In this document: in pieces, positions 19,884 to 53,771 of the stretch
How the letters are laid out: every line of letters starts with the position of its first letter
Position numbering within the stretch: the first letter of the stretch is position 1
IMG/VR virus record: IMGVR_UViG_3300048033_000643
Origin: an uncultured virus (IMG/VR IMGVR_UViG_3300048033_000643)
Taxonomy: Duplodnaviria > Heunggongvirae > Uroviricota > Caudoviricetes > Crassvirales
Reading direction: 5' to 3' (one strand)
DNA length: 64,000 bases
The notes under the pieces: model-generated
What the model was told of the DNA's origin: nothing
The model's database searches: none
Seen by the model: only the letters and a program-made list of their open reading frames with translations
Translations under genes and position numbers: made by a program

Positions 19884-22129
19884 TTATTAAGTAATTGACT
19901 TACTGAGTTCTTGTTATTATATCTCGCAAAGTTAATGCTTATTTTTGATTGTTTTTGAACGGGTGTATACAAGTGTTTTTGATTTGCCATAATTGCTAAA
20001 CCAGAACTAATCGCAGCATCAAACTTTGTTCTGTTTGTTATGTCAAATTTAGCCCAGTCTTCTAGTGTTCTTTGAAAATACATACTACCTATATCGTCTT
20101 TTTCTCTATAATCTCCTTCAAAATCTAATCCTACATATTTCTCAATATACGACTCAATAGCTGAGGCGTGAGATTGCTTAACATCTTCAGATGAGTTTGG
20201 AATACCCCCTAACTCTCTTTCAGTCTTAGATAACTTATTATAAGTTTTATCCGGTCTGTTTAAACAAAAGCCTCGGTATCCTCTATTTTTAAAATGATAC
20301 AATAAACGAGGTTTATTATTTTCACATAATATTGGCATGCCATAAAATATACACGCCATTAAAACTTCTTCAAAAAATATCTCAGCGGTTTGAGGTCTAG
20401 CAATATATTCTAAAAAGAATTCATTACTAGGTGCATCATCCATATTAAATTTTGTCTGCCCATGTAAAGCTCCGTTAGAACCTTTACCTACTACAACTCC
20501 TGAAATATCATAAGAGTCACAACCAAACGATCCAATATGTTCATTGCCTGGATACATCTTTCCACCCTTCTTAATCACATTGTTTTGAAGAGAAGCTTTA
20601 GGGATGTAAGTTACAAAAAATCTACCTCTTTTATTTGGGCTCCAGATTACCTTAGAATCTTTTATACCATCTTTCCAATGGAACCCACCTTGAGTCATAA
20701 AGTGTCCCATATTTATAGAATCATTATAATCTATTTGCTGGTATATTTTTGTTAAATTAAATAATGATTGTTTGCTTTCATCTCTAAACGCATGTGACTC
20801 TGTTCTAGGAAACTGTCTATAAAATTCATTTAAAGCGTCAGGATCTGAAGTTAATGATTCAACCTCGTTAGTCCAGTAATCTACAGCCCCTTGAGTAATA
20901 GGCTCTTTGTCTATTCCTTTAATAGGTTTGTCTGGATTCTTGAACACAGGCATACCATACATGTCAATAAAACCTTCCATATTCCACTCCATAGGAATAA
21001 ACAGATTATATAAACCGCTTTTTGTTTGTCCGTTAGAGTTTCTGTTTCTGCAATCAGATGACTCAAATAAATCTTTAAAATTTCTACCACCTTTATCTAA
21101 CGCATTTGATGTAGATCCCATCATACATTTACCTATGACTTTACTACCTAATCTTAAACATGTTTTGGTTACACGCCAGTTGTTTAATATATTCTCTGGC
21201 CTCTCCCATTTACCACTTTCATCGTGTAACAATAACTGTAACTTCTCACCATCATAACTATTATCAGATGTATTCTTCCAGTCAATTGTTGTGTCTAATC
21301 CTTCAAGCTCCTCTTCACTTACTGTATACATATTCTTTTTAGTAATCTTAGAAGCTGGAACACGATAAGCTAATTCTGTTTTAGGCTTATCCATACCATC
21401 TTGTATAGGTTTAAAAAAGAAAGGATAGTTGTTTGATATTGGCACTATCTTATCTGTAAACATCTTCTTTGCATCCGCACCAGTTTTTGATAGTATACCT
21501 ATTCTAGAATCTTTAGTTATTGTCGCTGTGTTAACACCTTCACACGAGCTCATAAATGAAAACCCTGAACGTCTTATTTTTAAATAACACATACCAAAAC
21601 TTCTTTTATCAGCTTTGCATGCCTCCCAGAATATATAGAACAAACGATTTGCTTCTCTAAAGTCTGGATGACCAACGTCAATCTTTGTCCATTGTAAATA
21701 CATATAATGTGTTCCTGTAATATAAGTAGGAACACCGTTATTCATAAACCAAAAACCTTCTTCTCTCCTATCAAACTCTTGTTCGATATAATCCACCCAT
21801 TTGTTCTTGAATTGTATCGGAGCTTCATGCCATTGAAATATTGACTGTATTCTTTTTAATTCTTTACTTATTTCATGCGCCTCCCAATACTGATCATCTT
21901 TTTTTTTGGATCTTGAATAAACTTTTGTAGGAGCTTTTGGTAATGCAATATGTAGGCCATTTATTTCTATGACATCACCTATTTGACCTGACTTAGATAT
22001 AACAACAAAATTATATTTTTCGTTATAACCATAAGTCCAAGTTCTTGCTTTATTCTTTGTAGATAAAACATTTTTTGGAACTACTCTAGTTAGTGTAGTG
22101 TATAAGTTATTTAGATCTTGATTCTGCAA
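19880..22129 (-). CDS. terL: terminase large subunit
   Basis: Walker A-like KIRRSGFS, Walker B LLLHDESGKW, RQFPRTESHAF, nuclease motifs FGCDSYD, ENNKP, KFDAAISSGLA. Confidence 0.88.
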   Translation of the reverse strand: MQNQDLNNLYTTLTRVVPKNVLSTKNKARTWTYGYNEKYNFVVISKSGQIGDVIEINGLHIALPKAPTKVYSRSKKKDDQYWEAHEISKELKRIQSIFQWHEAPIQFKNKWVDYIEQEFDRREEGFWFMNNGVPTYITGTHYMYLQWTKIDVGHPDFREANRLFYIFWEACKADKRSFGMCYLKIRRSGFSFMSSCEGVNTATITKDSRIGILSKTGADAKKMFTDKIVPISNNYPFFFKPIQDGMDKPKTELAYRVPASKITKKNMYTVSEEELEGLDTTIDWKNTSDNSYDGEKLQLLLHDESGKWERPENILNNWRVTKTCLRLGSKVIGKCMMGSTSNALDKGGRNFKDLFESSDCRNRNSNGQTKSGLYNLFIPMEWNMEGFIDMYGMPVFKNPDKPIKGIDKEPITQGAVDYWTNEVESLTSDPDALNEFYRQFPRTESHAFRDESKQSLFNLTKIYQQIDYNDSINMGHFMTQGGFHWKDGIKDSKVIWSPNKRGRFFVTYIPKASLQNNVIKKGGKMYPGNEHIGSFGCDSYDISGVVVGKGSNGALHGQTKFNMDDAPSNEFFLEYIARPQTAEIFFEEVLMACIFYGMPILCENNKPRLLYHFKNRGYRGFCLNRPDKTYNKLSKTERELGGIPNSSEDVKQSHASAIESYIEKYVGLDFEGDYREKDDIGSMYFQRTLEDWAKFDITNRTKFDAAISSGLAIMANQKHLYTPVQKQSKISINFARYNNKNSVSQLLNK

Positions 22130-22382
22130 ATCCTTTAGGGGTATTATTTTTCTTTATATCACCACCCTCTAATAATTGCTTTTCGTCTTCTATTCTTTTA
22201 AGGATCTCAAAAGCGTCAAAGATAGCAAGCTTTTTAGTAGCGGCAGCATTCTTTAATCTGTCAGCAGCTAACTCATCATCCTTATCGTATTTAATAATAT
22301 CTTCTTTAGCTACCTTTATTAATTGTATAACAGCTTTTTCTCCAGCTTTTATTATTTGTTCTTTAATATCTTTAATATCCAT
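22107..22382 (-). CDS. hypothetical protein, possible terminase small subunit
   Basis: Helical 91-aa ORF overlapping the terL start. Confidence 0.45.
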   Translation of the reverse strand: MDIKDIKEQIIKAGEKAVIQLIKVAKEDIIKYDKDDELAADRLKNAAATKKLAIFDAFEILKRIEDEKQLLEGGDIKKNNTPKGFAESRSK

Positions 22383-22946
22383 TTACATAATCATAGTTAT
22401 GTTATCTGTAAACATTCTATATAGCTTTTCATCTTCTACATAAAACTCATACTCAGACTCAGGAGTAAAAGAAACTTCGTCTCCTACCTTTACACCTAAG
22501 TTTTTTAACTCTTGATTGTTATATTTAACAACACCCATAAGAGGTTCTTCTTTGCCGGTCTTTCCTAAAAAAGATTTTTTTGGCGGAATAGGTTTTATAA
22601 AACAATACTTAGAATGGCTTTTCCACTCTTCTTTATTATAATACAAAAAAAATTGATCAAAGTCAATAAAGAATAAATCGTCTTTAAAAAAGCTTTTACC
22701 ACTTTTCTCACGCCCGTACATGTCATTGTAATATTTAAAAACATTATGATGTACTAAAAGTATGTCACCTATATTGACATCTCCTGAATAATTTATTGGA
22801 GTTGACACCACTTGCGCATACCTATTAGCCGTTTTATGATCTTCTTTTGATACGCTAATTAAAAAATCTAAGTCTGCTATTTTCTTTACGTTATCATACC
22901 TAGTGCCGTTTACAGGACGTACAATAAATGAAAATGGAGATTGCAT
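22383..22946 (-). CDS. GroES-like co-chaperonin with apparently two GroES-like domains
   Basis: Two GroES-type segments (VNIGDILLVHHN; GVKVGDEVSF...EFYVEDEKLYRM). Confidence 0.6.
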   Translation of the reverse strand: MQSPFSFIVRPVNGTRYDNVKKIADLDFLISVSKEDHKTANRYAQVVSTPINYSGDVNIGDILLVHHNVFKYYNDMYGREKSGKSFFKDDLFFIDFDQFFLYYNKEEWKSHSKYCFIKPIPPKKSFLGKTGKEEPLMGVVKYNNQELKNLGVKVGDEVSFTPESEYEFYVEDEKLYRMFTDNITMIM

Positions 22947-23170
22947 TAAAAGTTTATATTATATTCAATAGAAATAGGTAAGGTAGTTTTAAACTCTTTC
23001 CATATAACAATTTCTTTATTTTTTTCTATCCAAATCTTATATGAACTTGCGCCTGAGTCGTGCTGTATTAAATGAATAATATAAGATCCTCCAAGAACAT
23101 CCTGCCCTACTATGTAATGCATAGCTCCAGACTTATAGTCTGCTCCTATTGAAATCTTTCTAATGTCCAT
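22946..23170 (-). CDS. hypothetical protein, 74 aa
   Basis: Translationally coupled ORF (IRKISIGADYK..AMHY.VGQ). Confidence 0.7.
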   Translation of the reverse strand: MDIRKISIGADYKSGAMHYIVGQDVLGGSYIIHLIQHDSGASSYKIWIEKNKEIVIWKEFKTTLPISIEYNINF

Positions 23171-23174
23171 TTAA

Positions 23175-23693
23175 TTAAAATGTAGAATCTAATTTTAGCT
23201 TTCTGTATGTAATATTTATATATAAAGTTCCATTCCCTGCACTTGGACTAGCAAAACCACCTAATGTTATTCCTGCGTTTTCTGCAATAAATTCAGCAGG
23301 TGAAGGATCGTTTTTATATACTTTTTTATTTGCAGCGTTTAATAAAAGCAGTGGCAATGGTTCTTGAATAGTTCCTTGTGTTATATTTAAAGTGTTTACA
23401 AAATTATAAGGAGTTGATCCTGGAATCATTAAGCTTACAATTTGACTAACATCATACACATAACCGTCTCCAGGAGGAGCTAGCAATGTGTATGGTTGTG
23501 CTGCAATTACTTTTAAATAAGTTTCTGGAATAGCTATTGTAACGGACGTAGTGTTTAAACCAAATAAAGTTTGTAAGTTTTCTAACGTACAAGTTTTAGT
23601 GTTTAAATTATTCTCTGCATCAGTTAGCACAAAGTAATCCGGCAGTGTAGGAATTATACTTGAGTACGCTGTGGTATTACTTATTCTAGCCAT
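23175..23693 (-). CDS. putative virion protein
   Basis: MARIS N-terminus shared with 35730-36449; lies in the tail region. Confidence 0.55.
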   Translation of the reverse strand: MARISNTTAYSSIIPTLPDYFVLTDAENNLNTKTCTLENLQTLFGLNTTSVTIAIPETYLKVIAAQPYTLLAPPGDGYVYDVSQIVSLMIPGSTPYNFVNTLNITQGTIQEPLPLLLLNAANKKVYKNDPSPAEFIAENAGITLGGFASPSAGNGTLYINITYRKLKLDSTF

Positions 23694-23697
23694 TGTT

Positions 23698-23958
23698 TTA
23701 TTTTATAGGTTCTGCTTCTACTGCTTGCGGTTTTTTAGTGACAATACCTGTTGCTAAATCAATAACAGCATCTTGCCCATATTTCTCCGCTAATTTTTTC
23801 TCTTCAATACCAAACGCACCTCTTAAGTCTTCTAAAGCTTTTAGATTCATTTGCTGTCTTAATACATTATCAGCAATCTCTAATTTAGCTTTAGTAAAGT
23901 CTTGGTTTAGTTCTTGAATTTTTTTTAATTCGCCTTCAGTTAATTTAATTTCACTCAT
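23698..23958 (-). CDS. small coiled-coil protein
   Basis: Heptad pattern and EKYG...IDL.TG C-terminal motif. Confidence 0.65.
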   Translation of the reverse strand: MSEIKLTEGELKKIQELNQDFTKAKLEIADNVLRQQMNLKALEDLRGAFGIEEKKLAEKYGQDAVIDLATGIVTKKPQAVEAEPIK

Positions 23959-24008
23959 TTTAATTTATTTTTAATGTTAATTTTATTTATGTAAATATAG
24001 TAAATATA

Positions 24009-24386
24009 TTATTCTTCTTCTACGTTTTCATTAATTGGTGGAGGCGCAGGAGGGTTATCCCATGTGAAGTATAAGTCTTCATCCACAGGATGCTTCTCTA
24101 AATCTATTTGTTTAGACAAGTTTGCTTCCATGTCAGCTACAGGCAACCCTGCTTTTAGCCAACTAATAACTACATTCTCAAATCCTTCGTCATTAGCGTA
24201 AGGAACAAAAGTTGTTGACGGATCATACTCTAAAGAGTAAGTTCCTATTTGACTAGCGGTGTATTGCGAGTCTTTGTCGTCTTGAGCGGTATACGTCCAA
24301 TGTACTGTGTAGATTACGTTTTGATTCCCATCTTCTTCGATACGGGCGTTCATTTGATTTATTGTCCATTTATAAAAATTTGCCAT
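24009..24386 (-). CDS. tail-fibre-associated small protein, paralog of 30154-30513
   Basis: Y.W.I..M...NV...VHW.Y...FVPY...V..W pattern; follows a fibre gene. Confidence 0.6.
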   Translation of the reverse strand: MANFYKWTINQMNARIEEDGNQNVIYTVHWTYTAQDDKDSQYTASQIGTYSLEYDPSTTFVPYANDEGFENVVISWLKAGLPVADMEANLSKQIDLEKHPVDEDLYFTWDNPPAPPPINENVEEE

Positions 24387-24421
24387 TGTTTAATATTTTT
24401 ACAAAGATATAAAATTAAATT

Positions 24422-26410
24422 TTAAAAAGTTACTATTGCTGATGGAGCACCTTTCATCATAACTCTTGGTGTATAACCCTGTGTGCCAGATAAACTTTTA
24501 AATACAAATGATAAAGTTGTAGTTCCATCACCAGTTACAACTACATCAACTTTAACTGCCGTTTGTCTTGATCTTGCCGTTGCATACCAATTACCACTTT
24601 GATTTGTACAACTATAAACAACATCTACGACTCCGTTTGTGCCTCCAATTCCAGTAAATTCCACTAATGCAGATGCACCATTACCCGATCCTGTAACTGT
24701 TGCAATTGTATAACCTGTTGTATCTAAACTGGCAACAGCAAAATTAGAATGTTTTATATCTTTAGCTATTAACTCTCCGCCCACCTCAAGTTTAGCTCTA
24801 GGCGAGGTCGTCCCGATCCCAACGTTTCCCACATCACTTCCTGTCCCGCCTACAACGGTTAATGCTTCTTCATTTGCATTCCATCCATAAGTTAATGATA
24901 ATTTATCTTGATATCTTAATAATCGCATACCATCAGTATACGCACTTCCTGTTTCAAAAAATAACAGTTGAGGGCCAGTGCTGTTTCTTATAGCAACCAT
25001 ACCATCAACATCTAAGGCATAAGCAGGATTAGTCGTTCCGATCCCGACGTTGCCGCCGTTTGGATTAAGTAATAGTGGGTATGTTATTGATAAATCTGCT
25101 TTATTGGTAGCTTGTAGCCATTGTGTTCCAGTTGCAGGGCCTACTGAACCAAAATCTAATACTGTACCATATCCGCTAACATTTAATCGCATTGTGCCAG
25201 TAAAAGCTGTACCTGAAGTTGCAGGTAACCCTGTAGTTCCCACTACTTGTAATTTAGCACTAGGCAAAGTCGTACCGATCCCGACGTAGCCAGAAGCACC
25301 ATCAACAACTAATCTTGAATTTGTATTATGTGTTAAATGAAATACAGCACCTCTATTTTCTAATCCAATAGGAGTATCTCTTGAATCGTTTAATATTACT
25401 CCAACACTACCACCGTGTTCAATTTCTAAAACTTTATCTAATGAGTTTGGATTATCAACATTTGTGTTTCCAATAATTACGTTACCGTCTTTATCTATCC
25501 TCATTCTTTCTTGAATACCGGCACCTCCGGGAGCAGTCCAAAATCGCAAATTACCGGCATTGTTAGCGGCTTGTCTATTAGCACTTATCATTGCAGTTCG
25601 TGTACCACCTGCACCAAAAGAAAGTATACCATAGTTTTGCCCTTCGGCATCAACGCTTGGCGCTAGTAATTCTATAGTACCCGCATAACCCGCAGTAGTA
25701 CCACCCATTATAGTTAAAACTTTATAACCATATCCTGTTTGGTCAGGCGTTTCAGTTCCAATTGCAACGTTTCCTCTATCTAAAACTAAATTATTTGTAT
25801 AATAAGTTCCAGCATATCGTGTTACAAACTCTAAGACATTTTCGCTGCCTGAATTTCTCCATGTCATTATTCCTTTATAATTAGTGTCAGTATCACTTAC
25901 CGCAACACTAGGATCTGAAGCATTTAAAACAGTAACAGAAGGCCCTTTAAATGTAGATGCACCACCGTTTTCTATCTCCAAAATATCCAAACCATTTCTC
26001 CCAATTCTAAATTTACCTGATGCACCTATATTCTCTATAAACCAAGTGCTGTTAGTGTATGTTGTGTTTGAAGATCCTAAAAAGATAGCTGGTCTACCTG
26101 CTCCAAAAGTTCCTATTTTAACTTCATCTACCGAACTGCTGGCAGCAGAAGTATTAGATAAGTTTGTAAACGTAGTGCCTACAGCTGTTAGTCTTATTTT
26201 AGTATCTCCAACTCTTTTTATAAGAAAGTCTCCACCCACAACATTTAATGTATCATAGTATGCTTCGAGATAATTACTAGCATTATACTTAACTTGTAAT
26301 AATGCATTTGATGTTGTAGCTTCAGTTAATATTCTATCGCCAGCATTAACTTTACCTGAAGTAGTTATATCTCCTGTTATATTTTCGCCACTTAATATTC
26401 TTATTGCCAT
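24422..26410 (-). CDS. tail fibre protein with GNVGIGTTxP repeats
   Basis: Five G(N/Y)VxIGxx repeats, most followed by P..L.V. Confidence 0.8.
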   Translation of the reverse strand: MAIRILSGENITGDITTSGKVNAGDRILTEATTSNALLQVKYNASNYLEAYYDTLNVVGGDFLIKRVGDTKIRLTAVGTTFTNLSNTSAASSSVDEVKIGTFGAGRPAIFLGSSNTTYTNSTWFIENIGASGKFRIGRNGLDILEIENGGASTFKGPSVTVLNASDPSVAVSDTDTNYKGIMTWRNSGSENVLEFVTRYAGTYYTNNLVLDRGNVAIGTETPDQTGYGYKVLTIMGGTTAGYAGTIELLAPSVDAEGQNYGILSFGAGGTRTAMISANRQAANNAGNLRFWTAPGGAGIQERMRIDKDGNVIIGNTNVDNPNSLDKVLEIEHGGSVGVILNDSRDTPIGLENRGAVFHLTHNTNSRLVVDGASGYVGIGTTLPSAKLQVVGTTGLPATSGTAFTGTMRLNVSGYGTVLDFGSVGPATGTQWLQATNKADLSITYPLLLNPNGGNVGIGTTNPAYALDVDGMVAIRNSTGPQLLFFETGSAYTDGMRLLRYQDKLSLTYGWNANEEALTVVGGTGSDVGNVGIGTTSPRAKLEVGGELIAKDIKHSNFAVASLDTTGYTIATVTGSGNGASALVEFTGIGGTNGVVDVVYSCTNQSGNWYATARSRQTAVKVDVVVTGDGTTTLSFVFKSLSGTQGYTPRVMMKGAPSAIVTF

Positions 26411-26420
26411 AATTATTTAT

Positions 26421-26906
26421 TTAACATGTTGATGGATAACCTGAATCTACAACACCTTGATTTGTTGATATTTTTATATAGGTTCTGTTTCCATTCCCAC
26501 TAGATGATGGCGGTATAGTATAATATCCAGCTGCAAGTACACTTGTACCTGCACTGTCAGAATAACAGATGTCTCCTGCTGTTGGGTACTGACCACTACC
26601 GTTATGATAATATGTTTGATTCAACGGATTCAAGCTTCCATTAAAATTACAATTTGCTAAAAACACACCCATTGTTGATGAACTATAAGATGTTGTTGAA
26701 ACAAAGCTTCGTCCGTAAAATTCAGAATACGCATGTGGCGCACTTTGATTTACAGGCGGACTAGCTGTTGCATACAACTTAACTAACGAACCAGTTTGCG
26801 GCGTAGAGCTACCTCCAGATAAAGGAGCGTTAGCGGTTGCTGACCTCCCGGGTACTTCTGCGTTTATCATATTTGCCGATATAGTTCCTGAGCCTGGTAA
26901 TGCCAT
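26421..26906 (-). CDS. fibre-associated protein carrying one Cys-rich TYYHNGSG module
   Basis: N-terminal MALPGSGTIS...SEFYG segment typical of small genes after S74 fibres; C-terminus closely matches the last module of 3808-4749. Confidence 0.7.
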   Translation of the reverse strand: MALPGSGTISANMINAEVPGRSATANAPLSGGSSTPQTGSLVKLYATASPPVNQSAPHAYSEFYGRSFVSTTSYSSSTMGVFLANCNFNGSLNPLNQTYYHNGSGQYPTAGDICYSDSAGTSVLAAGYYTIPPSSSGNGNRTYIKISTNQGVVDSGYPSTC

Positions 26907-29900
26907 TATTTTATTTGTTTTTTAAGTTCTTCTACTTCTGCTTTTAAATCTTTTATAGCTTCAATTAGGTAACCTGTTATATTACCGTAAGCTACAGATT
27001 TATACTCAGTGTATTCATCTACTAATTCAGGTGCTATTTTTTCTAGTTCTTGCGCTATTACACCACTGCCTTTTTTATTATCTTTTATAAAGCTAACTCC
27101 TCTCATTTCATAAACCTTAGAACCATCTAAAGTTTTAATGTTTGTTTTTAATCTTTCATCTGAGTATGCTACAACGTCACCAGTAAAAGTTCCTGTACCA
27201 CTGCTGTTTAAAGTAAATAAAGTTCCACTACTTCCTGTACCATGGTGACCAATTCTAAAATCTCCTGAGTCATTATTATTACTATCAAAATTAATTCTAA
27301 CTTTACCGTAAGAGTTCCATGTCATGTTATCACCATAAACACCATTATCAGTAGATGTTATTGAGTGTTGAATGTTAGTTCCATAGCTATCACTATCCCA
27401 AGTAAAAAATATTCCACCAAATTTATATAATTGAGAAGAAGCGTTGTTTACAGATTTACCATATACATCACCACTAAACTCAGCGTCTTGATTCGACTTT
27501 AACTCTAATACTGTTGTGCTATTTGATTGTAAATATAAATTATTAGCTGTTGTTGTTCTAATAGTACCTGTACCAGCCGTAAAACTTAATCGTCTACTTG
27601 TACCATTAATATTCAAATCAGTAGAGCCTTGGACATGAACATCTCCAGTAACTAAAAATCTTTCCGAGGTTCCATTATATACATGCAAAGCACCTTGAGG
27701 GTTTGTTGTTGATACACCTAAACGTCCTGAGGTACCATTACCAGTTACAATAACATTTCCATTTTGTTGTAATTCAAGAGTGTGTGCTGCTACGGAGGTA
27801 TAACCTGGTGTTGAACCTTGTGGATAAAAGTGTAAATTATAATTTGAGCCAGAACCTCTTGCTGATATATCCCATCTAATACCACCATTAATATCAAAAA
27901 ATAATTCTGCCGCATCATCTGCTATACTTCTAATTCTTTGTGTTGCTCTACCGCTACTAGCTTGATTTATAAATCCACTGGTTGCGTCTGTTCCATAACT
28001 TCCATTAGAATAAGTTAAATGAAATTTAGGCACCGGACTGCTTGTTCCAATTCCTACATTTCCAGATCCTACTGACTGTACGGCGAAAAGGTTTTGTCCA
28101 TTTCTTGCCCAACTATTAACTTGAGTATTTGTTATAGTTTGTGAAATACCTGTAAATGCGCTTGTTTCAAAACTTACTTGATAGCCGTAATGCCAGTTAG
28201 CACCTTGATTACTATGCCCACCATTCCATTGTGTTACCCAAACTTGTGGATAAGTCCAAGTTGAATTAAGCTCTCCAATATAAGCTACAGCTCTTGTGGC
28301 GGTAGCATCATAACCAAGCCTTACTGTAAAGTTTCTATCAGAATTAGGGTTTGAATCCACCCACGCACTGACATTATACCATGTTGTGGTAGGATTATAA
28401 TTATAGCCACAAATGGTAACGTCAAAAGGCTCCCATGTATTGTATTCATAAACCCTAACAGTAAACATCATCATAGTGTTAGTCATTGCTTGTGGTAGTT
28501 GTATTTTTATAGCTCCTGCGGTACTACTGCCATTACCTACACTATAGGCTACAGGTATTTGATAACCCGAACTACCACCTACCACAATTCCTTCACCTGT
28601 GGTAAAAGCTCCAGTCACTTGTACATCATTAGATATTTGTGTGTTAGAATAACCTTCACCAACCTGTAATAATGTTCCGGCTGTATTACCTTCTAAAGCT
28701 CTTCTATCAGTCCCGCCTGCTGTACCAAAAACTAAACGATTATTTGTGTTAGCAATTTTTATACTACCATTTACTTGTAGTTTTTGATCAGGCGAAGTAG
28801 ATCCGATACCTACTCTTAAGTTGGGATCTAGAGTCATAAGCACTTGTTCGCTACCTCCGGTTGGATTCCCACCGCCTCTATAAAAATAAAATTTGTTATC
28901 AGCATCTGTTGCTCTAGAACTTAACGCCCAATAAACACCTGTCCAACCTGTTTCATTTGCAGCACCAGTATGACCAAATAATATATCAGCAGGATAACTG
29001 GTACTAGCAGAATCTAATCTAATATCAGCCCTTCCAGAAAGCGCCCAATTTCTACCTGCTCTAACACCGAACACATCTAGTGGCGCAGTCGGGCTAGTAG
29101 TTTGAATACCTACATATCCTCCTGTTGTTATTTGAAGTTTAGTTTGTGCAGCATAAGAAGATTGAGAACCGTCAGCCGCATATCCAATATTAAAACCAGT
29201 TTGGTTATAACCACTACCAACAAACCATTCTGCATCAGTACCGCCACCGCTTGTAGTAACGTTATCTTTCATTTTTATTCCAACACCACGACCATCGTAA
29301 CCATGCAGGTTTATTTTAGATGTCATAGCTGGGGAGCCACCATTGTCAGGTGCAGTTACATTAAGAATTGTGTCAAAAGTACCATTACCAGTAAAGGTTG
29401 CATCACCATTACTTCCATTTATTGTTAACCTTGCTGTTTCATCAGTTCCTAAAACTAAATTTCTACTAGAACTGTTGTGATAAATATGCATAGCATTGCC
29501 ATCTAAAGCAATTGCACCAGTGTATCCGTTACCTTGAATTCTTAATTGACCAGCGCTACTAGCGCTCATGCTAATATTGCTGCTATCACCTAAAGTTACA
29601 TTACCTGAAAAAGTTGCTCCTGGAATATTTGAAAAATCCGCTATACTACCGTCACCTCTTACATATTGAGAGGTGGTTCCGGATAAACTTAAAGTGCTTG
29701 TCCAAGCTCCTGAAGAGTTAATTATATCAGTTCCTCTCCAGCTTATTGTTGAGTTATTATATAATTTTAAACCGCCAGTATAATTTCCATTACCGTCTTT
29801 ATATCCAAAATCAACATATCTGTTAGCGGTAGCACCATCATATCTAAATTTCCAACTAGGGCCATTTAAACTTCCATTATCTAACACATGATATTCTACT

Positions 29901-30103
29901 TGGTTAGACATAGTTCTAAGCATCCATGAACCAGCCGTTAAAACACCCGCTATGTTGGTAGTAGATAATGATGTAGTGCCGTCAACATTTAAGTTTGCAT
30001 CTATTTGAGCATTAGTTGTAATGTCTAAATCATTACCTTGTACTTGTCCAGTAACAACTAAATTGCCATTTATATTTTCACTGCTTAATAATCTAATTGC
30101 CAT
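26906..30103 (-). CDS. tail fibre/spike with C-terminal peptidase S74 intramolecular chaperone
   Basis: GDVVAYSDERLKTNI...GVIAQELEKIAPELV...SVAYGN..LIEAIKDL; GxVGIxT repeats. Confidence 0.88.
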   Translation of the reverse strand: MAIRLLSSENINGNLVVTGQVQGNDLDITTNAQIDANLNVDGTTSLSTTNIAGVLTAGSWMLRTMSNQVEYHVLDNGSLNGPSWKFRYDGATANRYVDFGYKDGNGNYTGGLKLYNNSTISWRGTDIINSSGAWTSTLSLSGTTSQYVRGDGSIADFSNIPGATFSGNVTLGDSSNISMSASSAGQLRIQGNGYTGAIALDGNAMHIYHNSSSRNLVLGTDETARLTINGSNGDATFTGNGTFDTILNVTAPDNGGSPAMTSKINLHGYDGRGVGIKMKDNVTTSGGGTDAEWFVGSGYNQTGFNIGYAADGSQSSYAAQTKLQITTGGYVGIQTTSPTAPLDVFGVRAGRNWALSGRADIRLDSASTSYPADILFGHTGAANETGWTGVYWALSSRATDADNKFYFYRGGGNPTGGSEQVLMTLDPNLRVGIGSTSPDQKLQVNGSIKIANTNNRLVFGTAGGTDRRALEGNTAGTLLQVGEGYSNTQISNDVQVTGAFTTGEGIVVGGSSGYQIPVAYSVGNGSSTAGAIKIQLPQAMTNTMMMFTVRVYEYNTWEPFDVTICGYNYNPTTTWYNVSAWVDSNPNSDRNFTVRLGYDATATRAVAYIGELNSTWTYPQVWVTQWNGGHSNQGANWHYGYQVSFETSAFTGISQTITNTQVNSWARNGQNLFAVQSVGSGNVGIGTSSPVPKFHLTYSNGSYGTDATSGFINQASSGRATQRIRSIADDAAELFFDINGGIRWDISARGSGSNYNLHFYPQGSTPGYTSVAAHTLELQQNGNVIVTGNGTSGRLGVSTTNPQGALHVYNGTSERFLVTGDVHVQGSTDLNINGTSRRLSFTAGTGTIRTTTANNLYLQSNSTTVLELKSNQDAEFSGDVYGKSVNNASSQLYKFGGIFFTWDSDSYGTNIQHSITSTDNGVYGDNMTWNSYGKVRINFDSNNNDSGDFRIGHHGTGSSGTLFTLNSSGTGTFTGDVVAYSDERLKTNIKTLDGSKVYEMRGVSFIKDNKKGSGVIAQELEKIAPELVDEYTEYKSVAYGNITGYLIEAIKDLKAEVEELKKQIK

Positions 30104-30153
30104 AAAGAGTAGAATTTACACAAAGATAATCAATTATAGATTACCTTTTATAA

Positions 30154-30513
30154 TTACTCATCTCCTGGCGGAAGTGGTTCTGGTGGCTCTGGGGCCCAAG
30201 GCATTGGAGCATCCTCATTTGTAGGTGCTATTTGGTTTTCAATACCCGCTTGAACAACTTCATTTGGATGATCTATAGGATAAATTGGTTGTATCCATGC
30301 AATAACCTCATCTTCTGTTAAATCTGCTAAAGGAACAAAACTTGCAGAGCTTGGTGGTGGAACTGGATAAGCTCCATTAAAGGTAGAACTAAAGCCTGAA
30401 TCAGAGTCTGTTCCAGTATAGTTAAATTGTACGTTTGTAACCACATCGGTTAAACCGTCTAAAGAAGGAGCCATTTTCATTCCTGTAATTGCCCATACAT
30501 AAGTTATATTCAT
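30154..30513 (-). CDS. tail-fibre-associated small protein
   Basis: TYVWAIT...DVVTNV.F.Y...FVPLADLTEDEVIAW...PW pattern. Confidence 0.6.
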   Translation of the reverse strand: MNITYVWAITGMKMAPSLDGLTDVVTNVQFNYTGTDSDSGFSSTFNGAYPVPPPSSASFVPLADLTEDEVIAWIQPIYPIDHPNEVVQAGIENQIAPTNEDAPMPWAPEPPEPLPPGDE

Positions 30514-30526
30514 AGTTGCAAAGATA

Positions 30527-33500
30527 TTAATTATTTTCTAATGTTTCTATTCTAGTTTTTAAATCGTTTATTATAACTTGTTGTTCTTTTACAGACTCAA
30601 TAAGCAGTGCAGTTAGTTTTTGATAGTCAACAGCTTTGTAACCATTAGATCTAGTTTGTACAATCTCTGGCAATATTTCTTCTACCTCTTGAGCTACTAC
30701 ACCTATATCTTTTTTACCTGTTTCCTTGTGAGATATTTCATTCCACTCAAAAGTATAACCACCTATCTTACTTAATTTATCTAAAGCATTTGTTATTGGT
30801 GTAATATTGTTTTTAAATCTAATATCAGAACTAGCATACGCTACAACATCACCCGCTACATTTACTGATGTTCCTGTAGTGCTTGGATCTAAATAAAACG
30901 CAGTATTATTGTAATCATAAAATATAGGAGCACGCAAACTTGTTGTGCTTTGTAAGTAAACCCCTATGGTTTGATCGTTTTCATTAGTTAAAAAGTTGTA
31001 AGGCCCTCTAGATGTACCACCCTCTAATCTAGAGTATCTTGGAGGCCCCCAAAAAGGAAATGCAATTGTTGTATTGTAATAATTTGAGCCATTCCCGTGA
31101 TTACCTATGTAATAATTGTGCCAACCACTAAACCCTGCAAATGAACCTGATGTTTGATAAAAACTTTGGCCATTTGTTTGATAACCTGTAATAGCTAATT
31201 TATTGCTTTGAGAAATAGTTCCTGTAATAGTATTAGCAACTGTTAGTCCATTTAAATTACTTGTACCAGCAAAATCACCGTAATAAGCTGTGTTATTTGA
31301 ATCATAAAATACTGGTGCCCTATATGATGCTGTTTCTTCACTATATGCGCTATATAGCCATTGTCTTGTTGTGTTATGTGCCATTAAACGCATATCATGT
31401 CCAGTTACAGTTCCAAATGATGAATATAATTGACCAGTATGTGTCCACCACGAGGCTCTAACTGCATTTGCATCTTGTGCGCAATCAATTCTAGCATGAA
31501 CAGTGCTGGCGACTACAAACCTAGAACCCCAACTCCCGTCATCTGAATTATACGTTGAACTGTTACCAACTTTTACAAAATTGGCACCAAATCTCCATTG
31601 CCCTTGCGTATTAACATTACCAGATGTAGTCATCTGCAACTGATAGTTATTGTTGCTACCAAGATAAAGTTCATCACCAGCACCCATTTTCATTTGAAAA
31701 GCATTAGTTCCCGCATCTTGAAAAGTTAATGTTGAGTCGTTGGTTTGAAAAGTTATTGGAGTGTATAAATTGCTGCCACTTGCAGGATCTACATAATAAG
31801 CTGTGTTATCTTTGTCAATAAAATTAGATCCATAAACATTAGCATTAGGACTAGCATTACCACCATTAAAACCATATACAACTGGTGTCAGCCAACCAGA
31901 ATAGTTGTCATTATTCCATTGTGTTTTATATGCCAAATCACCAGTATGTGCTGAATATAATTGAAACGAATGATTTGCTGTTCTAGTGCTTAATACTGAT
32001 CCATAAGTATAAACACCCGTTGGTGAATTTGTATAGCTCCCAATTGCATTATATTGTGTTACTGTAAATTGACCAGAACTTGCAACTAAATTTTGCCAAT
32101 CAGATTGATTATTTGTTGAATTAATACAACCAACATTAGTATTATCGTTTCTTGGTTGAATTATAATCCTACTGTTAGCTGTAAGTGTGTCAGCGACAAT
32201 TAATCCACAATTTAAAGAAACACTACCTACACTATCCCCTGAAGTTATGTTAAGATTACCACTAGCCGGAGAAATATTCCAAGACCTTGTACCTGTTTGG
32301 TCAAATTGCAATGAGTTACTAAGCATTTGTATATTGCCTGACATAGTACCCCCTGATAATGGTAAAAAAGGGCCACCAGTTTGATTTTGAAGTGTTGTCC
32401 ATGTTGGCGATCCAGTTCCGCCAGATGTTAATACTTGACCTGAATTACCACTTGTCCCGCCGCTTAAATGTATTGCACCAACTCTATCAACCGCAAATCT
32501 ATTTGATCCATTTCCAGCTTCAGCTATTAACATTCCGTTAATATCTAATCTAGTGCTATCACTATAACCAGTAGGTACTGATCCAACAGTTGCCGAAGTA
32601 CTAAGAACCCAATTATTAGTTGCATAATGAGTGTCTTGTACCGTTATATTATAACTACCAGTTCTTTGACAATATATTTCTACAAACTGATCTTGATAAG
32701 TAGTCCCTATTAATAATCTAATCTCTGTAAAACCTATAACACTATAAAAAGAGCTACTTTTAAGTTTTAACATAGTTCCTGCATACTGTGAGTATGAAGA
32801 ACCTGCATAAAAAGTTATATTACCATGTGGGCCACCACTAATTCCATCTTGTATATAAATATCACCACAAGATCTACCCGCACCACTAGCTATACGATAC
32901 CAATTACCTGCTGTCATAGAATAGCTAACACTTCTGCTAGTTCCTAAATTACCTATTCCAGTATTTATTTTATTAAACACACTAGTACTAGCAAAATCAC
33001 CATAATAAGCACCATTAGCTGAATCATAATAAATAGGAGATAACATTGAAGATGTAGCTGTTATAGTTGATGCTTTAAATTGTTCATAATCATTACCAGG
33101 ATTATTTCTAACAGCTATTGTGCCGTTTGATTCAATTGTCATTGATGATGCAACTACACCTCCCCAATGCCAAGCTATCCTTGGTGGAGTTCCACTTGCA
33201 CCACTCGAAGAAGCCATTAGTTCTATAGCCGCAGTACTATAACTTGTTGAAGTACTTGAAGGGTAAAACGTTGTGTTACCTGTTATTGATTGATTACCTG
33301 TTGTTCTTATAACAGTACTATCTACTGATAAAGTACCAGTTGTAGTAATTGTTCCTCCTGTAAGCCCTGAACCTGTGGCAACTGAAGTTACTGTTCCTCC
33401 AGATCCTGGATGAGCGTCAACATAAGCTTTGTTTGCAGCGTCAGTACTTGCACTAACAGTATCTACACCTTGTATTCTACCAGTGCCAGCTAAAGTTAAA

Positions 33501-34207
33501 TTTCCGTTTGATATTTGTAAAAAACCTCTAGTTATATTTACATTACCAGAATGATCTATATTTAATGCTGTTTTAGATCCTGTTGCATAACTATCTGTTG
33601 TAGCTAAATACATTCTAGTTCCGTAACTTCCGTCTGACCTTATGTATATCCCAGCCTGAGCATTACTACCTGAACTCGCATCAGATGCGCCAAATGTAAT
33701 CGCTCCGCCAGCATGATCTGTTCCTTCATCTGGATCAATATGAATCGAACCTTTTGAAACACCTTGAGTAGTTGGATCCCAAACCCGACCTTCATGAACA
33801 GTAAATATACCTGTATAATCACCAGACATGGTAAGAGTTCCAGTTGTAGTAATTGTTCCTCCCGTCAATCCGTTGCCTGTAGCCACAGATGTTACGCCAC
33901 TTACAGTTGATGAGGGAGCGTAAAATCCATCAGTAACTCCTGTTCTAAATTGAGCTGGGGTTACATATCTTAGATATGCATCGTTACTTGCTGTAATTCT
34001 TGTGATTGATCCTGTGTGGTTGCCAGAGACTGAGTTTATCCAGCCAAAGTTTACATAACCATTAGCTTCGGTTCTTACTATTTGATTGGCTAGATTATTT
34101 ACACCTGTAGTGTTTATGGCTAGACCATTAAACGTAGCGCCTTGTACATTTCCAGATACCGTTAAAGTTCCGGATATAGTTTGTCCACTAAGAAATTTTA
34201 TCGCCAT
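30527..34207 (-). CDS. long tail fibre with C-terminal peptidase S74 chaperone
   Basis: AYASSDIRFKNNITPI...IGVVAQEVEEILPEIV...AVDYQKL; internal TSVATG.GLTGGTITTTGTL and P.FYD.NNTAYY.D repeats. Confidence 0.88.
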   Translation of the reverse strand: MAIKFLSGQTISGTLTVSGNVQGATFNGLAINTTGVNNLANQIVRTEANGYVNFGWINSVSGNHTGSITRITASNDAYLRYVTPAQFRTGVTDGFYAPSSTVSGVTSVATGNGLTGGTITTTGTLTMSGDYTGIFTVHEGRVWDPTTQGVSKGSIHIDPDEGTDHAGGAITFGASDASSGSNAQAGIYIRSDGSYGTRMYLATTDSYATGSKTALNIDHSGNVNITRGFLQISNGNLTLAGTGRIQGVDTVSASTDAANKAYVDAHPGSGGTVTSVATGSGLTGGTITTTGTLSVDSTVIRTTGNQSITGNTTFYPSSTSTSYSTAAIELMASSSGASGTPPRIAWHWGGVVASSMTIESNGTIAVRNNPGNDYEQFKASTITATSSMLSPIYYDSANGAYYGDFASTSVFNKINTGIGNLGTSRSVSYSMTAGNWYRIASGAGRSCGDIYIQDGISGGPHGNITFYAGSSYSQYAGTMLKLKSSSFYSVIGFTEIRLLIGTTYQDQFVEIYCQRTGSYNITVQDTHYATNNWVLSTSATVGSVPTGYSDSTRLDINGMLIAEAGNGSNRFAVDRVGAIHLSGGTSGNSGQVLTSGGTGSPTWTTLQNQTGGPFLPLSGGTMSGNIQMLSNSLQFDQTGTRSWNISPASGNLNITSGDSVGSVSLNCGLIVADTLTANSRIIIQPRNDNTNVGCINSTNNQSDWQNLVASSGQFTVTQYNAIGSYTNSPTGVYTYGSVLSTRTANHSFQLYSAHTGDLAYKTQWNNDNYSGWLTPVVYGFNGGNASPNANVYGSNFIDKDNTAYYVDPASGSNLYTPITFQTNDSTLTFQDAGTNAFQMKMGAGDELYLGSNNNYQLQMTTSGNVNTQGQWRFGANFVKVGNSSTYNSDDGSWGSRFVVASTVHARIDCAQDANAVRASWWTHTGQLYSSFGTVTGHDMRLMAHNTTRQWLYSAYSEETASYRAPVFYDSNNTAYYGDFAGTSNLNGLTVANTITGTISQSNKLAITGYQTNGQSFYQTSGSFAGFSGWHNYYIGNHGNGSNYYNTTIAFPFWGPPRYSRLEGGTSRGPYNFLTNENDQTIGVYLQSTTSLRAPIFYDYNNTAFYLDPSTTGTSVNVAGDVVAYASSDIRFKNNITPITNALDKLSKIGGYTFEWNEISHKETGKKDIGVVAQEVEEILPEIVQTRSNGYKAVDYQKLTALLIESVKEQQVIINDLKTRIETLENN

Positions 34208-34222
34208 GTAAGTAAATTAAAA

Positions 34223-35716
34223 CTAACTTACAGATATAAGAACTCTAGCGGCGTCTTGAGCAAGGGCTGTTGTTGTAGATAATGTTACTACTGTTGTGCT
34301 TGTTCGTACTACGTCACAAATAACTGTATCAAATGTTGTGTTATCATAAACTTGTACAATTACATCTCTAGTTCCTAGTCCGTGAGTTACAGCGTATGTA
34401 GTGGCAGAATTATTTCCAATATTTGCCGCATGATTCAATCCAGTCCCTACACATGTCTCAACTGCTGTACAGAAATCTGTAATTTGTGTAGATGGGATAG
34501 CTATATTTGCTTCTGCAATACCTGTTATTATTCCTTTTCCGTCTGCTGTTATTTGTAATGATTTTGTTACTGCTCCATAAGAACCAGCAACTCCTGTTTG
34601 ACTATCTAAGGCTACAGCACCACTTGCGTTAACTGTTAAACCTCCTGAAGTTGGAAAACTTGCAAGACCTACTGTAGTTGCAGTTGCTAAATCTGTATCT
34701 GATTGTACTATTACAAAATCTCCTTCAACAGAAGCTCCTGCTGCTGCTGCGGTGTTACATATAACTTGATCCCCAACTGTAAGCGGTGTTGCTGTGTTTC
34801 CAAAGAAATCACCTGCTGTTGTACATACATAAAAATCTCCAACTGCAATAGCTACTCTGTTAGCTCCTGTTGTTAAATTATCTGTTCCACCATCAATAAC
34901 ACCTGTTGTTGCATTAAACCCTCCTTTTATTTGTAGAGATCCTACAACTGCATTGTCAACGTATTGTTTTGTTGCTGCATCAGCGTTTGCTGTTGGTGCA
35001 GATAATCCTGTAATCTTATTATTACCCATTGCTAAATCAGCACTAGGAGTTCCTAATAAGTTAATAGGAATTTCATTACCTGCTTTTCTTTTTTGAGTCG
35101 TTCCGTCTAATACAATAAATTCATCAGCTGCAACCCATGTTTGAGTCATGTCTGGTAAATCTTGTAATTGTAGATTGTAAGTTACGGTATCTGTTGCGCT
35201 AATTACCGCATCTAATCCCGTATTGTGTGCAAACGTAATTGTGTTTCCGTTTGCAACTGTTTGAGTATTTGTTCCGTCAGTTATATCAAAACCTGTTATT
35301 GGCTCTGTACTTGCGGTAACAGCTGTTATTTGTCCTTTTTTATTGTATGAAATACTTGCTGGATACGCAACACTTCCGGCTGCTGCACTAGGAGCATTAT
35401 CGTCCATAGTAATAGCAACTTGTCTAGTTGCTCCAGCTGTTGTAGTTATAAATCCAGTTTCGCCTAATATTGACGCACTTTGACCGTTGCTAATTGTTTG
35501 ATCCGCTCCTGAATCTCCTTTCAAAATCCAAGTAACCATTCCTGAGCTTACTGTTTGCCATCCAGTTGAGGTGTTATATTTTAATACGTCATTCGTAGTA
35601 TCAAATATCATTTGACCTACTCCTGACACTGTAGGATCACTAGCTTGATTATCAACCTTAAAGGTTTTAAGCTGGTTGTTGTTAAGTGCTATACTTGATA
35701 AATACGATATTGCCAT
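34223..35716 (-). CDS. proximal tail fibre/fibre-anchoring protein
   Basis: NKITGLSAPTANADAATKQYVD and VTHGLGTRDVIVQVYD motifs. Confidence 0.7.
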   Translation of the reverse strand: MAISYLSSIALNNNQLKTFKVDNQASDPTVSGVGQMIFDTTNDVLKYNTSTGWQTVSSGMVTWILKGDSGADQTISNGQSASILGETGFITTTAGATRQVAITMDDNAPSAAAGSVAYPASISYNKKGQITAVTASTEPITGFDITDGTNTQTVANGNTITFAHNTGLDAVISATDTVTYNLQLQDLPDMTQTWVAADEFIVLDGTTQKRKAGNEIPINLLGTPSADLAMGNNKITGLSAPTANADAATKQYVDNAVVGSLQIKGGFNATTGVIDGGTDNLTTGANRVAIAVGDFYVCTTAGDFFGNTATPLTVGDQVICNTAAAAGASVEGDFVIVQSDTDLATATTVGLASFPTSGGLTVNASGAVALDSQTGVAGSYGAVTKSLQITADGKGIITGIAEANIAIPSTQITDFCTAVETCVGTGLNHAANIGNNSATTYAVTHGLGTRDVIVQVYDNTTFDTVICDVVRTSTTVVTLSTTTALAQDAARVLISVS

Positions 35717-35729
35717 AATTTTTTATTTA

Positions 35730-36449: not shown

Positions 36450-36487
36450 AGTAGTAATTTATTATTTACAAAGATAATCAAAAGAAA

Positions 36488-52043: not shown

Positions 52044-52458
52044 AGAATTGTATTACATATTTGAGGAAGCTTTAAATGATAGAAAAGCTATAGAAACTCA
52101 GACTAAAAAAGTTCATTCCGTAATAGCTAATGGAGTTAAAATTCAAAAGTTTTCTGATCGAATAGAAATACTTAACATGGGGAAAGGTGGCGACTATTTC
52201 CAAGAATGCACACTTGAGGAGTATGATTTTTTCTATGATGAGGGATGGGAAGTTGGATGTTATAAGGTTAAGATTAACAACTGCATACATAAACTTAAGA
52301 TAATAGAAGAAAATATTAAAACTGAAGTAAATACAAGAAAGAACGATAAGCATATTCAAAATTTAAAAAATAGAAGAGAAAAAATTCTTCAGAAATATAC
52401 TATAAATAAAAATAAATTAAATCAAATCAAATCAAATCAAAATGGAAAATTACTTTAA
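52033..52458 (+). CDS. hypothetical protein
   Basis: ORF track. Confidence 0.6.
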   Translation: MIIEELYYIFEEALNDRKAIETQTKKVHSVIANGVKIQKFSDRIEILNMGKGGDYFQECTLEEYDFFYDEGWEVGCYKVKINNCIHKLKIIEENIKTEVNTRKNDKHIQNLKNRREKILQKYTINKNKLNQIKSNQNGKLL

Positions 52459-53032
52459 AAAGTTGTCAGCCATCAACGTAAAAGGAATGGCAGAAAAAAA
52501 AGGAAATTTTAATTACCTATCATGGGCAAACGCTTGGTCACTTATTAAAGAGGCTTATCCTGATGCTCAAAGAAAAGTTTATGAATCAGCACAAACAGAG
52601 CTACCTTATTTTACAGACGGCAAAACTGCTTCAGTAAAAGTTGGAATAATGGTTAATGGTATAGAACACATTGATTATTTACCTGTAATGGATTACAGAA
52701 ACAATTCAATTCCTATAGCTAAAATTACATCTATGGATGTTAACACTGCAATACAAAGGTCTACTGCAAAAGCTATTGCTATGCACGGATTAGGTATAGC
52801 TATATTTAAAGGCGAGGATTTGGTAAATATTGCAAGTCCGAAAGCTAACGTACCTAAGGAGCCTAAGAAGGAGATTACTTACACTCTAAAGGTAGGGGGC
52901 GATAATTGGGAAAAAGTTCTTAATTACATATCTAAAAAGCGAGGAGATGGATTAGAGAAAATAATCCAAACTTTATCTACCAAGTACAAGATTACTGCTG
53001 AGGTAAAAAAAGAAATAGCTAAAAACGTATAA
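52442..53032 (+). CDS. Sak/DUF1071-type single-strand annealing protein
   Basis: EKKGNFNYLSWANAW, LPVMDYRN, DVNTAIQRSTAKAIAMHGLGIAIFKGED. Confidence 0.85.
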   Translation: MENYFKKLSAINVKGMAEKKGNFNYLSWANAWSLIKEAYPDAQRKVYESAQTELPYFTDGKTASVKVGIMVNGIEHIDYLPVMDYRNNSIPIAKITSMDVNTAIQRSTAKAIAMHGLGIAIFKGEDLVNIASPKANVPKEPKKEITYTLKVGGDNWEKVLNYISKKRGDGLEKIIQTLSTKYKITAEVKKEIAKNV

Positions 53033-53033: not shown

Positions 53034-53771
53034 ATGACAGAATCTGTAAAAGAAATTGTCGGCAATTTAGCTGATGACACAAAATATTATGGCGAGTATG
53101 GTCAACAATTTTTATCTAACTCAGACATACTTAACTTACTTAAGTTTCCAGAAAAATTTAAGGTGCCACAAGCTAAAACAAAAGCTATGGTGGAAGGAAA
53201 TTATTTTCATACTGCGATATTGGAGCCTGAAAAACTCATAGATTTTAAAGTGATAGATGTGGCTTCAAGATCAACAAAAGCTTACAAAGAAACTTGTGGG
53301 GAGAATGAAATATTATTGCTTCAAAAAGAAAAACTTCATCTTGATAGTTTAATTGACAAGATGCAATCGAATCTTGAGATGTTCGATGAAATTTATAAAG
53401 AAGGCAACAAGTTTGAAGTTCCACAAATTTCTGAGATAATGGGCAATACTTGGAAAGGTAAAGCTGATATTGTTACAGATGAATTTGTAATTGACATTAA
53501 AACAACAAACGACATTTCAAAATTTTATTGGAGTTGCATGAATTATAATTACGATTCACAAGCTTATCTTTATCAAAGATTTTTTAACAAACCATTAAGG
53601 TTTTATGTAATAGATAAACAATCATTTCAGTTAGGAATTTACGACTGCTCTGCAAACTTTATAGAGGGTGGTAAAAACAAAGTAGAAAAAGCAACTGAGG
53701 TGTATAATAAATTTTTTAGCAATGAAAAAACTCATAACATACATAACTACATCCATAAAGAAATTCTTTAA
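53034..53771 (+). CDS. PD-(D/E)XK RecE/DUF3799-like exonuclease
   Basis: LSNS, GNYFHTAILEP, KGKADIV...IDIKTT, YDSQAYLY; adjacent to the SSAP. Confidence 0.8.
   Translation: MTESVKEIVGNLADDTKYYGEYGQQFLSNSDILNLLKFPEKFKVPQAKTKAMVEGNYFHTAILEPEKLIDFKVIDVASRSTKAYKETCGENEILLLQKEKLHLDSLIDKMQSNLEMFDEIYKEGNKFEVPQISEIMGNTWKGKADIVTDEFVIDIKTTNDISKFYWSCMNYNYDSQAYLYQRFFNKPLRFYVIDKQSFQLGIYDCSANFIEGGKNKVEKATEVYNKFFSNEKTHNIHNYIHKEIL

Follow-up and report, generated by a model that had tools for sequence, protein, structure and literature searches.

Fiber mosaicism is a major route to host switching in phages, and crossover sites have been mapped in few systems. Receptor-binding fibers are diversified by shufflons, by invertible fiber segments (Gin/Cin/Min), and by diversity-generating retroelements (DGRs). 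The closest described case is that of the T-even phages, where the distal fiber and adhesin genes exchange segments in or near conserved motifs (the conserved motifs of gp37 and the glycine-rich motifs of gp38), a process described in the cited part of PMC3157838 without a dedicated recombinase. Here we analyzed a window of 64,000 nucleotides (the whole stretch studied) of an uncultured virus of the Crassvirales (IMG/VR record IMGVR_UViG_3300048033_000643), where a modular fiber gene (24422..26410, minus strand, 662 amino acids) carries three copies of a GC-rich repeat. The first-pass annotation of this DNA had proposed that the repeat is a crossover point for fiber cassettes, and that it represents a new kind of diversification system. 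The former was borne out by homology breakpoints and cassette reshuffling at the repeats, in relatives as well as in contigs from sequencing runs. The latter was not, since exchange at conserved motifs has already been published for T-even adhesins (PMC3157838, cited part). The system is thus a well-supported and very widespread form of motif-mediated fiber shuffling, where exchange is likely to proceed by ordinary homology-driven recombination, as in T4-type phages.

As in T-even adhesins, short conserved motifs lie between unrelated variable segments, and mosaic breakpoints fall in or beside these motifs. Unlike in T-even phages, whole modules of 60-250 residues change order, number, and gene here, in a phage that is Elemovirus-like, flavobacterial-type, and equipped with Sak/ERF. 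The segments lying between GRM1 and GRM5 were reassorted in none of 14 chimeras from T-even crosses, but internal reassortment is frequent in the present system, and the lineage-specific synonymous homogenization that we report below is not described for T-even motifs in the cited part of that work (PMC3157838). This homogenization, limited to the repeats, together with the reach of the system into cellular genomes and its interchangeable annealases, goes beyond the known case. Our literature search, which had most subscription journals outside it, returned no paper that treats the repeat as a site of crossover or describes its spellings.

The three 19-nt copies lie in frame at Val376 (25269-25287), Val455 (25032-25050), and Val530 (24807-24825), as first annotated, with mismatches at 2 of the 19 positions and a copy-to-copy spacing of 225 and 237 nt. 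When up to three mismatches were allowed, the pattern had 3 matches in the window (0.02 expected), a number that none of 100 shuffles reached. The copies are spelled GTC GGG ATC GGT ACG ACT, GTC GGG ATC GGA ACG ACT, and GTT GGG ATC GGG ACG ACC. Their codons had been called rare, and in 20 long open reading frames (ORFs) of the window this is the case for GTC (4.4% usage), GGG (7.9%), ATC (5.2%), and ACG (6.8%), with GTT as an exception outside this group of 4-8% codons. The joint occurrence of GGG, ATC, and ACG in all three copies has a chance of ~2e-11 under the codon usage of the window. It was also correct that the same peptide is spelled with ordinary AT-rich codons in the next fiber gene (copy at 28057) and that the units between copies are unrelated: compared pairwise, the four units flanking the copies never scored beyond their shuffles (6 of 6 comparisons). 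Conservation of a 19-bp element at the DNA level held in part, since the repeat is real but constitutes only the core of a ~30-nt unit (codons -2 to +7), hereafter the seam, which encodes GNVGIGTTSP. Seams occupy 25262..25291 at Val376, 25025..25054 at Val455, and 24800..24829 at Val530, all on the minus strand. The gene carries two further, degenerate seams on this strand, an AT-spelled one at Val215 (25745..25774; GNVAIGTETP) and one at Val311 (25457..25486; GNVIIGNTN).

The 662-aa protein matched the tail fiber family phrog_9942 (E = 4.8e-13) and is probably a virion tail fiber. It also matched Bdellovibrio Bd3182 (PDB 8OJN/8ONB/8ONC; E = 1.8e-4 for the whole sequence), in an alignment limited to capping-loop stretches where the seam peptide aligned to both loops of Bd3182, R656-H669 and F752-H765, reported as its capping loops (PMC10769870, cited part). 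By this alignment, the seam encodes the capping loop between the modules of a predicted trimeric fiber. Modeled as three copies, residues 345-560 scored 0.94 (best control, 0.11), with runs agreeing in at least 95% of contacts and a pLDDT of at least 89; 21 of 30 solved pairs and none of 23 single chains attained the mark set for this score. This model shows a likeness to already solved fibers and is not proof of binding. Bdellovibrio MAT (mosaic adhesive trimer) fibers such as Bd3182 are similar in having capping loops, a trimeric beta-rich fiber (a prediction for the phage protein), S74 and non-S74 ends (13 of 21 MATs carry a C-terminal S74 chaperone), and chimeric tips. For their part, MAT proteins are bacterial and carry a signal peptide and, at the N terminus, a conserved domain of ~130 aa. 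The cited part of the MAT work treats the motif as a structural loop and discusses tip swapping; it contains no DNA-level analysis and does not name the loop as a crossover site (PMC10769870). The S74 chaperone (PF13884) is absent from the C terminus of the 24422..26410 ORF and present in both neighboring fibers, and many relatives show an S74-type end at the orthologous position. The C-terminal domain beyond the last seam (24422-24800) is itself swapped, since relatives present S74-type ends, several non-S74 tips, or an extra gene of 119-128 aa.

The relatives were collected by protein and not by motif, and the removal of 43 near-duplicates from 108 relative loci left 65 dereplicated loci. 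The first-pass annotation had suggested comparing mosaic boundaries with the repeat, and in alignments of at least 90% identity the two mostly coincide: 90 of the 123 homology endpoints inside seam arrays fall -20 to +44 nt from the Val codon of a seam, whereas 23.3 were expected, the endpoints not being independent of each other. At the Val376 seam, the homology of L130, L131, and L134 stops at 25260, that of L132 at 25268, and that of L133 and L072 at 25244. At the Val455 seam, the homology of L136 and L138 begins at 25057 and that of L137 at 25054; at the Val530 seam, the same loci stop at 24783 (L136 and L138) and 24813 (L137). Accordingly, L136 shares only 25057-24783 with the window (96.7% identity over 275 nt), and L072 shares 25486-25244. 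The 174 seam-to-seam units of the 65 loci make up 138 types (24 shared clusters and 114 singletons), and these types recur beside new neighbors. The unit of the window called C0 has 4 different downstream neighbors in 5 loci, and the mobile cassette C1 (24830..25024, minus strand, 75 codons seam to seam) is found in 4 loci with 3 different upstream neighbors. Comparison of 1,142 seam contexts gave 83 pairs alike in the upstream flank alone, 79 alike in the downstream flank alone, and 10 alike on both sides. Some genomes also carry duplicated cassettes, as L020, L160, L181, L233, and L259 each have two seams sharing a high-identity flank.

Sequencing runs of other studies (X10 to X15) gave a similar picture. 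All 24 runs listed consisted of Logan contigs, RNA runs with small shares were excluded, and X15 counts only as evidence that the DNA form is present. Contigs diverge from the window at 25034-25037 (X10, X12, and X15) and at 25263 (X11), and the X13 and X14 contigs cover only 24786/8-25055/7. The 79-codon cassette at 25055..25261 (minus strand), which has no clustered partner among the units of the relatives, is present in contigs of X10, X11, X12, and X13. Loose ends or joints occur at 25755 in X10, X11, X13, and X14, and also in X5, a possible source of the window record. In X11 and X13, a joint links 25487 to 25755; the sides of such joints are short, their middles are unknown, and none was scored as a deletion. 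The endpoints at 25755 and at 25486, where the homology of L072 begins, indicate that the degenerate seams at Val215 and Val311 are used too.

Codon choice at the seams is strongly biased. In 103 seams from 24 loci of the close clade, and after conditioning on the next base, ATC was seen 55 times (4.2 expected), ACG 56 (3.2), GTC 37 (1.9), GGG 35 (4.2), and TCG 53 (10). In this clade, the excess of GC at third codon positions (GC3) is restricted to codons -3 to +6. Nevertheless, the seam bias is a sequence preference and not a plain gain of GC: GGT is depleted relative to GGA (6 and 8 seen versus ~45 expected), ACT and CCT are favored, and GTG, ACC, CCG, and GGC at the two inner glycines are nearly absent from 62 clade seams. 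Codon-pair context was rejected as a cause, since the bias persists after next-base conditioning and the same residue pairs outside seams are written with ordinary codons. The claim that the repeat is conserved as DNA is therefore partly right for the relatives, with a strong bias and mostly two states per synonymous site, but the spelling is not invariant.

The first-pass annotation had also called for a measure of synonymous conservation, and we compared identity among the seams of each locus with expectation, in loci with at least five seams. Seams were more alike at synonymous sites than expected in 30 of the 33 viral loci (or 26 of 29 contigs; mean excess, +0.17), in 20 of the 24 prokaryotic loci (mean excess, +0.09), and in 11 of the 15 clade loci. 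In flanking codons the excess was +0.002 (viral) and +0.03 (prokaryotic) and appeared in only 13 of 33, 14 of 24, and 6 of 15 (clade) loci. Homogenization is thus limited to the seams. GC3 of the motif exceeds that of the ORF in 23 of 33 viral, 19 of 24 prokaryotic, and 15 of 15 clade loci. Spellings vary from lineage to lineage, some of them AT-rich, and in nine of the 33 viral loci homogenization comes without GC excess, so GC richness is not required. The motif peptide occurs in records of the candidate phyla radiation (CPR), Bacteroidota, Bdellovibrionota, Omnitrophota, and DPANN, and a codon-blind peptide scan of 1 of 64 parts of each collection gave estimates of ~10,000 viral and ~16,000 GTDB stretches. 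A cultured representative, gp108 of Synechococcus phage S-CRES1 (L589; OQ587939.1, 1639-5592), has 11 seams in a spelling of its own. The loci L385, L419, L453, L389, and L484 (CPR, Bdellovibrionota, and metagenome-assembled genomes) show the same GC-leaning seam spelling, L385 against an ORF GC3 of ~0.2.

The position of the crossover within the seam is not fixed. Among recent pairs (shared flank of at least 97%), a difference is present at or before -3 in 13 of the 25 that share the upstream side and at or after +14 in 24 of the 33 that share the downstream side, within bounds that repeated events can blur. Given this spread of differences on both sides, no single cut position fits. Six pairs with both flanks at least 96% identical have 10 mismatches in 180 seam bases, which suggests, in this small sample, that seams may be overwritten more often than their flanks. 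A dyad or hairpin site was rejected, since no compensatory changes were found at drawable imperfect dyads in 62, 280, or 223 seams and the three copies have no shared significant RNA fold (z = +0.94, -0.78, and -1.62). The unknown recombinase invoked in the first-pass annotation is thus not supported as a site-specific enzyme, given neither a fixed cut point nor dyad covariation. Its statement that neither reverse transcriptase (RT) nor invertase is needed agrees with the 100%-complete genome, where PF00589 (tyrosine recombinase), PF00239 (resolvase), and PF00078 (RT) had no matches; among 47 motif-bearing records, a tyrosine recombinase (PF00589) was found in 4. No DGR template/variable repeat pair differing at adenines was seen among the 20 largest repeat families of 22000-36500. 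Shufflons, integrons, and DGRs were rejected as explanations, in view of the lack of a cognate recombinase or RT and of a fixed dyad or hairpin crossover point. Unlike shufflons, Gin/Cin/Min segments, and DGRs, the locus has direct, in-frame copies, no invertase, integrase, or RT, and new cassettes that come from other genomes. A restriction- or Dam-type cut site offered no lead either, with GATC at expectation (392 versus 382, both strands) and CG underrepresented (0.69).

We consider it likely that modules are swapped at the ~30-base capping-loop seam by generic short-homology strand annealing, using Sak or ERF with an ExoVIII-like nuclease, and not by a site-specific recombinase. The seam is the sole homology between otherwise unrelated modules, so that an annealase/exonuclease pair could use its ~30-45 nt of imperfect match to replace, gain, or lose modules in frame, presumably during co-infection and with a possible effect on host range. 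A crossover in the seam preserves the reading frame and, presumably, the trimer register, and folding would be limited to chimeras of this kind. Through crossover and patch conversion, repeated many times, the seam would then be homogenized within each gene pool. Copies matching the pool would recombine more and overwrite each other, and each lineage would in this way hold its own spelling against AT mutation pressure. The clade probably inherited its GC-rich spelling as the consensus of its pool, and stronger annealing may have contributed.

The first-pass annotation had named a Sak/RecE pair as possible enzymes. The window encodes a Sak single-strand annealing protein (52442..53032, plus strand; PF06378, E = 2.6e-33; phrog_659) and, adjacent to it, an ExoVIII/RecE-like exonuclease (53034..53771, plus strand; PF12684, E = 4.4e-19; phrog_412, exonuclease VIII). 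These enzymes are plausible and their genes present, but in related phages with shared cassettes ERF takes the place of Sak. Among 10 records at least 90% complete with the portal family of the window, 6 encode ERF (one in two pieces) and 4 Sak; DUF3799 is found in all 10 and tyrosine recombinase in none. Two genomes with different annealases, L523 (Sak) and L072 (ERF), share a 177-nt cassette at 98.9% identity. The presence of either annealase beside an ExoVIII-like nuclease in complete relatives makes generic strand annealing the likely engine. Rad52-like phage recombinases act on divergent and short homology, with a minimum of 30 bp for Red-beta (PMC3945230, cited part). The relaxed recombination of Red-beta, RecT, ERF, and Sak is similar to what we describe, with mosaic borders showing traces of homology, tolerance to divergence, and the pairing of a phage annealase with an exonuclease. 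The cited part of that work concerns longer homologies and temperate phages of E. coli (PMC3945230), whereas here ~30-45 nt inside one gene are reused many times.

Other explanations would account for part of these observations. GC-biased gene conversion in frequent heteroduplexes could raise the GC of seams and make the spelling a by-product without effect on exchange, as expected from a GC3 excess found only in the crossover zone, from two-state sites that are mostly transitions (A/G, T/C), and from the higher GC3 of the motif in all 15 clade loci. It fits poorly with the depletion of GGT relative to GGA, which is GC neutral, with GGC, ACC, GTG, and CCG/CCC not being raised while ACT and CCT are favored, with the homogenized AT-rich seams of other lineages, and with the low GC3 of the S74 region of the window, which is also rich in loose ends; we find it unlikely. 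The specificity of the spelling, not just high in GC given the near-absent codons of the clade, would rather suit a factor specific for this sequence (an unknown recombinase of phage or host, a nickase, or a Chi-like reader) that recognizes the GC-rich word and starts the exchange, as would a consensus that can be drawn as an imperfect dyad and the upward lean of the same codons across lineages. Such a factor is quite improbable, since five dyad pairs lacked compensatory changes (clade z from -2.1 to +1.4), crossover bounds range from -13 to +31, tyrosine and serine recombinases are missing from the genome and tyrosine recombinases from all but 4 of the 47 motif-bearing records, breakpoints also fall at AT-spelled and degenerate seams (25755 and 25486), and nine homogenized viral loci show no GC excess.

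The seam could also matter for translation, with rare codons slowing it between modules for trimer folding and breakpoints found at seams only because other chimeras misfold. The motif is indeed a structural capping loop in MAT fibers (PMC10769870, cited part), its codons are rare in the genome, and tRNA-Met is the only tRNA gene of the window. We regard pausing as very unlikely: the equally rare synonyms GTG, ACC, CCG, and CCC are unused, common-codon spellings are homogenized in other lineages, the copies share no significant RNA fold, and pausing would not make them alike in sequence. Least probable of all, and close to discounted, is that the seams are left over from modules acquired from GC-richer donors, or that the mosaics arose during assembly as chimeras at a short repeat, even if GC-richer phages and bacteria use similar seam codons and every sequence compared is a metagenomic assembly. 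Within cassettes, the sequence is AT-rich throughout (GC3 median, 0.17; maximum, 0.30; n = 170), which speaks against a recent origin in donors rich in GC, and DNA relatives of the cassettes, among the loci compared, occur only in contigs of 35-40% GC. Swapped pairs mostly differ within the seam, a result that exact-overlap misassembly would not produce. Nine runs, 6 of them possible sources, contain 86-100% of the sampled words of window positions 23200-27200, and one contig of X5 (a possible source) runs from 23200 to 25349 through all three copies.

Several observations weigh against exchange by generic strand annealing at seams as the full account. Selection for foldable trimers likewise gathers surviving breakpoints at seams, and 33 of the 123 endpoints lie away from any recognized seam. 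A seam of 30 nt with several mismatches sits at the lower limit quoted for Red-beta. Four of five complete motif-bearing genomes of other lineages (G001, G005, G010, and G018) had no match above cut-off to Sak, ERF, RecT, Rad52_Rad22, or AAA_24, in searches that did not cover RecA-type and Gp2.5-type proteins; part of the profile searches used 23 of the 47 motif-bearing records. As for the spelling, the GC-leaning codons are also in excess in unrelated lineages of phages and bacteria, which homogenization alone does not explain. Swapped seams are no closer to the GC consensus than partnerless ones (3.15 versus 3.01 of 7; n = 73 versus 76; P = 0.6), most seams without a partner being undersampled. 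Finally, the repeat family APIFYDSNNTAYYxDP of the third fiber (30527-34207) shows no comparable lock, its bias being mild at most in 25 copies from 10 loci.

Under a bolder reading, which we offer tentatively and judge somewhat doubtful, the spelling would act as a password for recombination: selection that is positively frequency-dependent and acts on an in-frame adaptor of 30 nt would sort phages and cells of CPR, Bdellovibrionota, Bacteroidota, and DPANN into cassette-sharing pools. There would then be a recombinase-free, sky-wide library of adhesin modules, with compatibility groups readable from synonymous sites in the ~10,000 viral and 16,000 prokaryotic stretches. The DNA uptake sequence (DUS) dialects of Neisseriaceae offer an analogy only, as lineage-specific variants of a short word linked to exchange; DUS are read by a receptor and spread genome-wide (PMC3630211, cited part), whereas the seam is confined to fiber genes and no reader protein was found for it. 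Apart from this bolder reading, one short peptide motif serves here as a reusable in-frame joint whose synonymous spelling records which genomes exchange modules, giving a sequence-only route to the adhesin gene pools of uncultured phages and host-attached bacteria. The seams would also allow a direct test of the minimal homology for phage annealases in nature, for which S-CRES1 gp108 is a possible test system.

The complete genome of the virus record has 65,869 bases (100% by CheckV) and an Elemovirus-like gene order. The portal protein matched 87 phage records, of which 86 are phages of Flavobacterium, Cellulophaga, Tenacibaculum, and Maribacter, the best cultured matches being at 46-48% identity, so a host among the Flavobacteriaceae appears probable. 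The fiber-bearing phage is described as marine. A blastn search for cultured close relatives gave nothing beyond short matches, and tblastn with the fiber returned 4 records (S-CRES1, S-CRES2, and two Thermus phages). Three consecutive fiber-like genes span 24422-34207, two of them with the S74 chaperone. The neighboring S74 fiber gene (26906..30103, minus strand) has seams at Val codons 28057 (AT-spelled) and 28813 (partly GC-spelled), with breakpoints at 28813/28790 and 28036. The third fiber gene (30527-34207) has its own repeat family, APIFYDSNNTAYYxDP, whose repeats also border shared segments (L053 and L137). Directly downstream of a fiber gene in each case lie two DUF7936 genes (24009-24386 and 30154-30513), which are possible fiber chaperones. 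A phrog_21885 domain of unknown function is common to three genes (3808-4749, 5823-6323, and 26421-26906), the last located between two fiber genes.

The window has a phage GroEL with GroES (42388-44415) and a second GroES-like gene adjoining the terminase (22383-22946), a layout that matches Elemovirus records. GC content rises up to 45% in 46000-47000, around a GP88-family gene (46449-47093) close to the switch in strand skew. Copies of TATCTTTG, a sequence similar to the Bacteroidota -7 promoter element TAnnTTTG, lie on the minus strand at 36476, 30526, 30128, 24409, 13956, and 3034, where each precedes the start of a late-gene ORF by 5-36 nt. Across the genome, TATCTTTG has 8 minus-strand and 2 plus-strand copies, and the TATCTTTG copy at 24409 is also the point where homology with relatives resumes past the variable fiber end. 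At the level of the whole genome, CGCG is strongly avoided (18 versus 79 expected), as are CACG/CGTG, GACC/GGTC, and GGAC/GTCC, while GGCG/CGCC and GACG/CGTC are overrepresented; the avoided 4-mers may correspond to host restriction sites.

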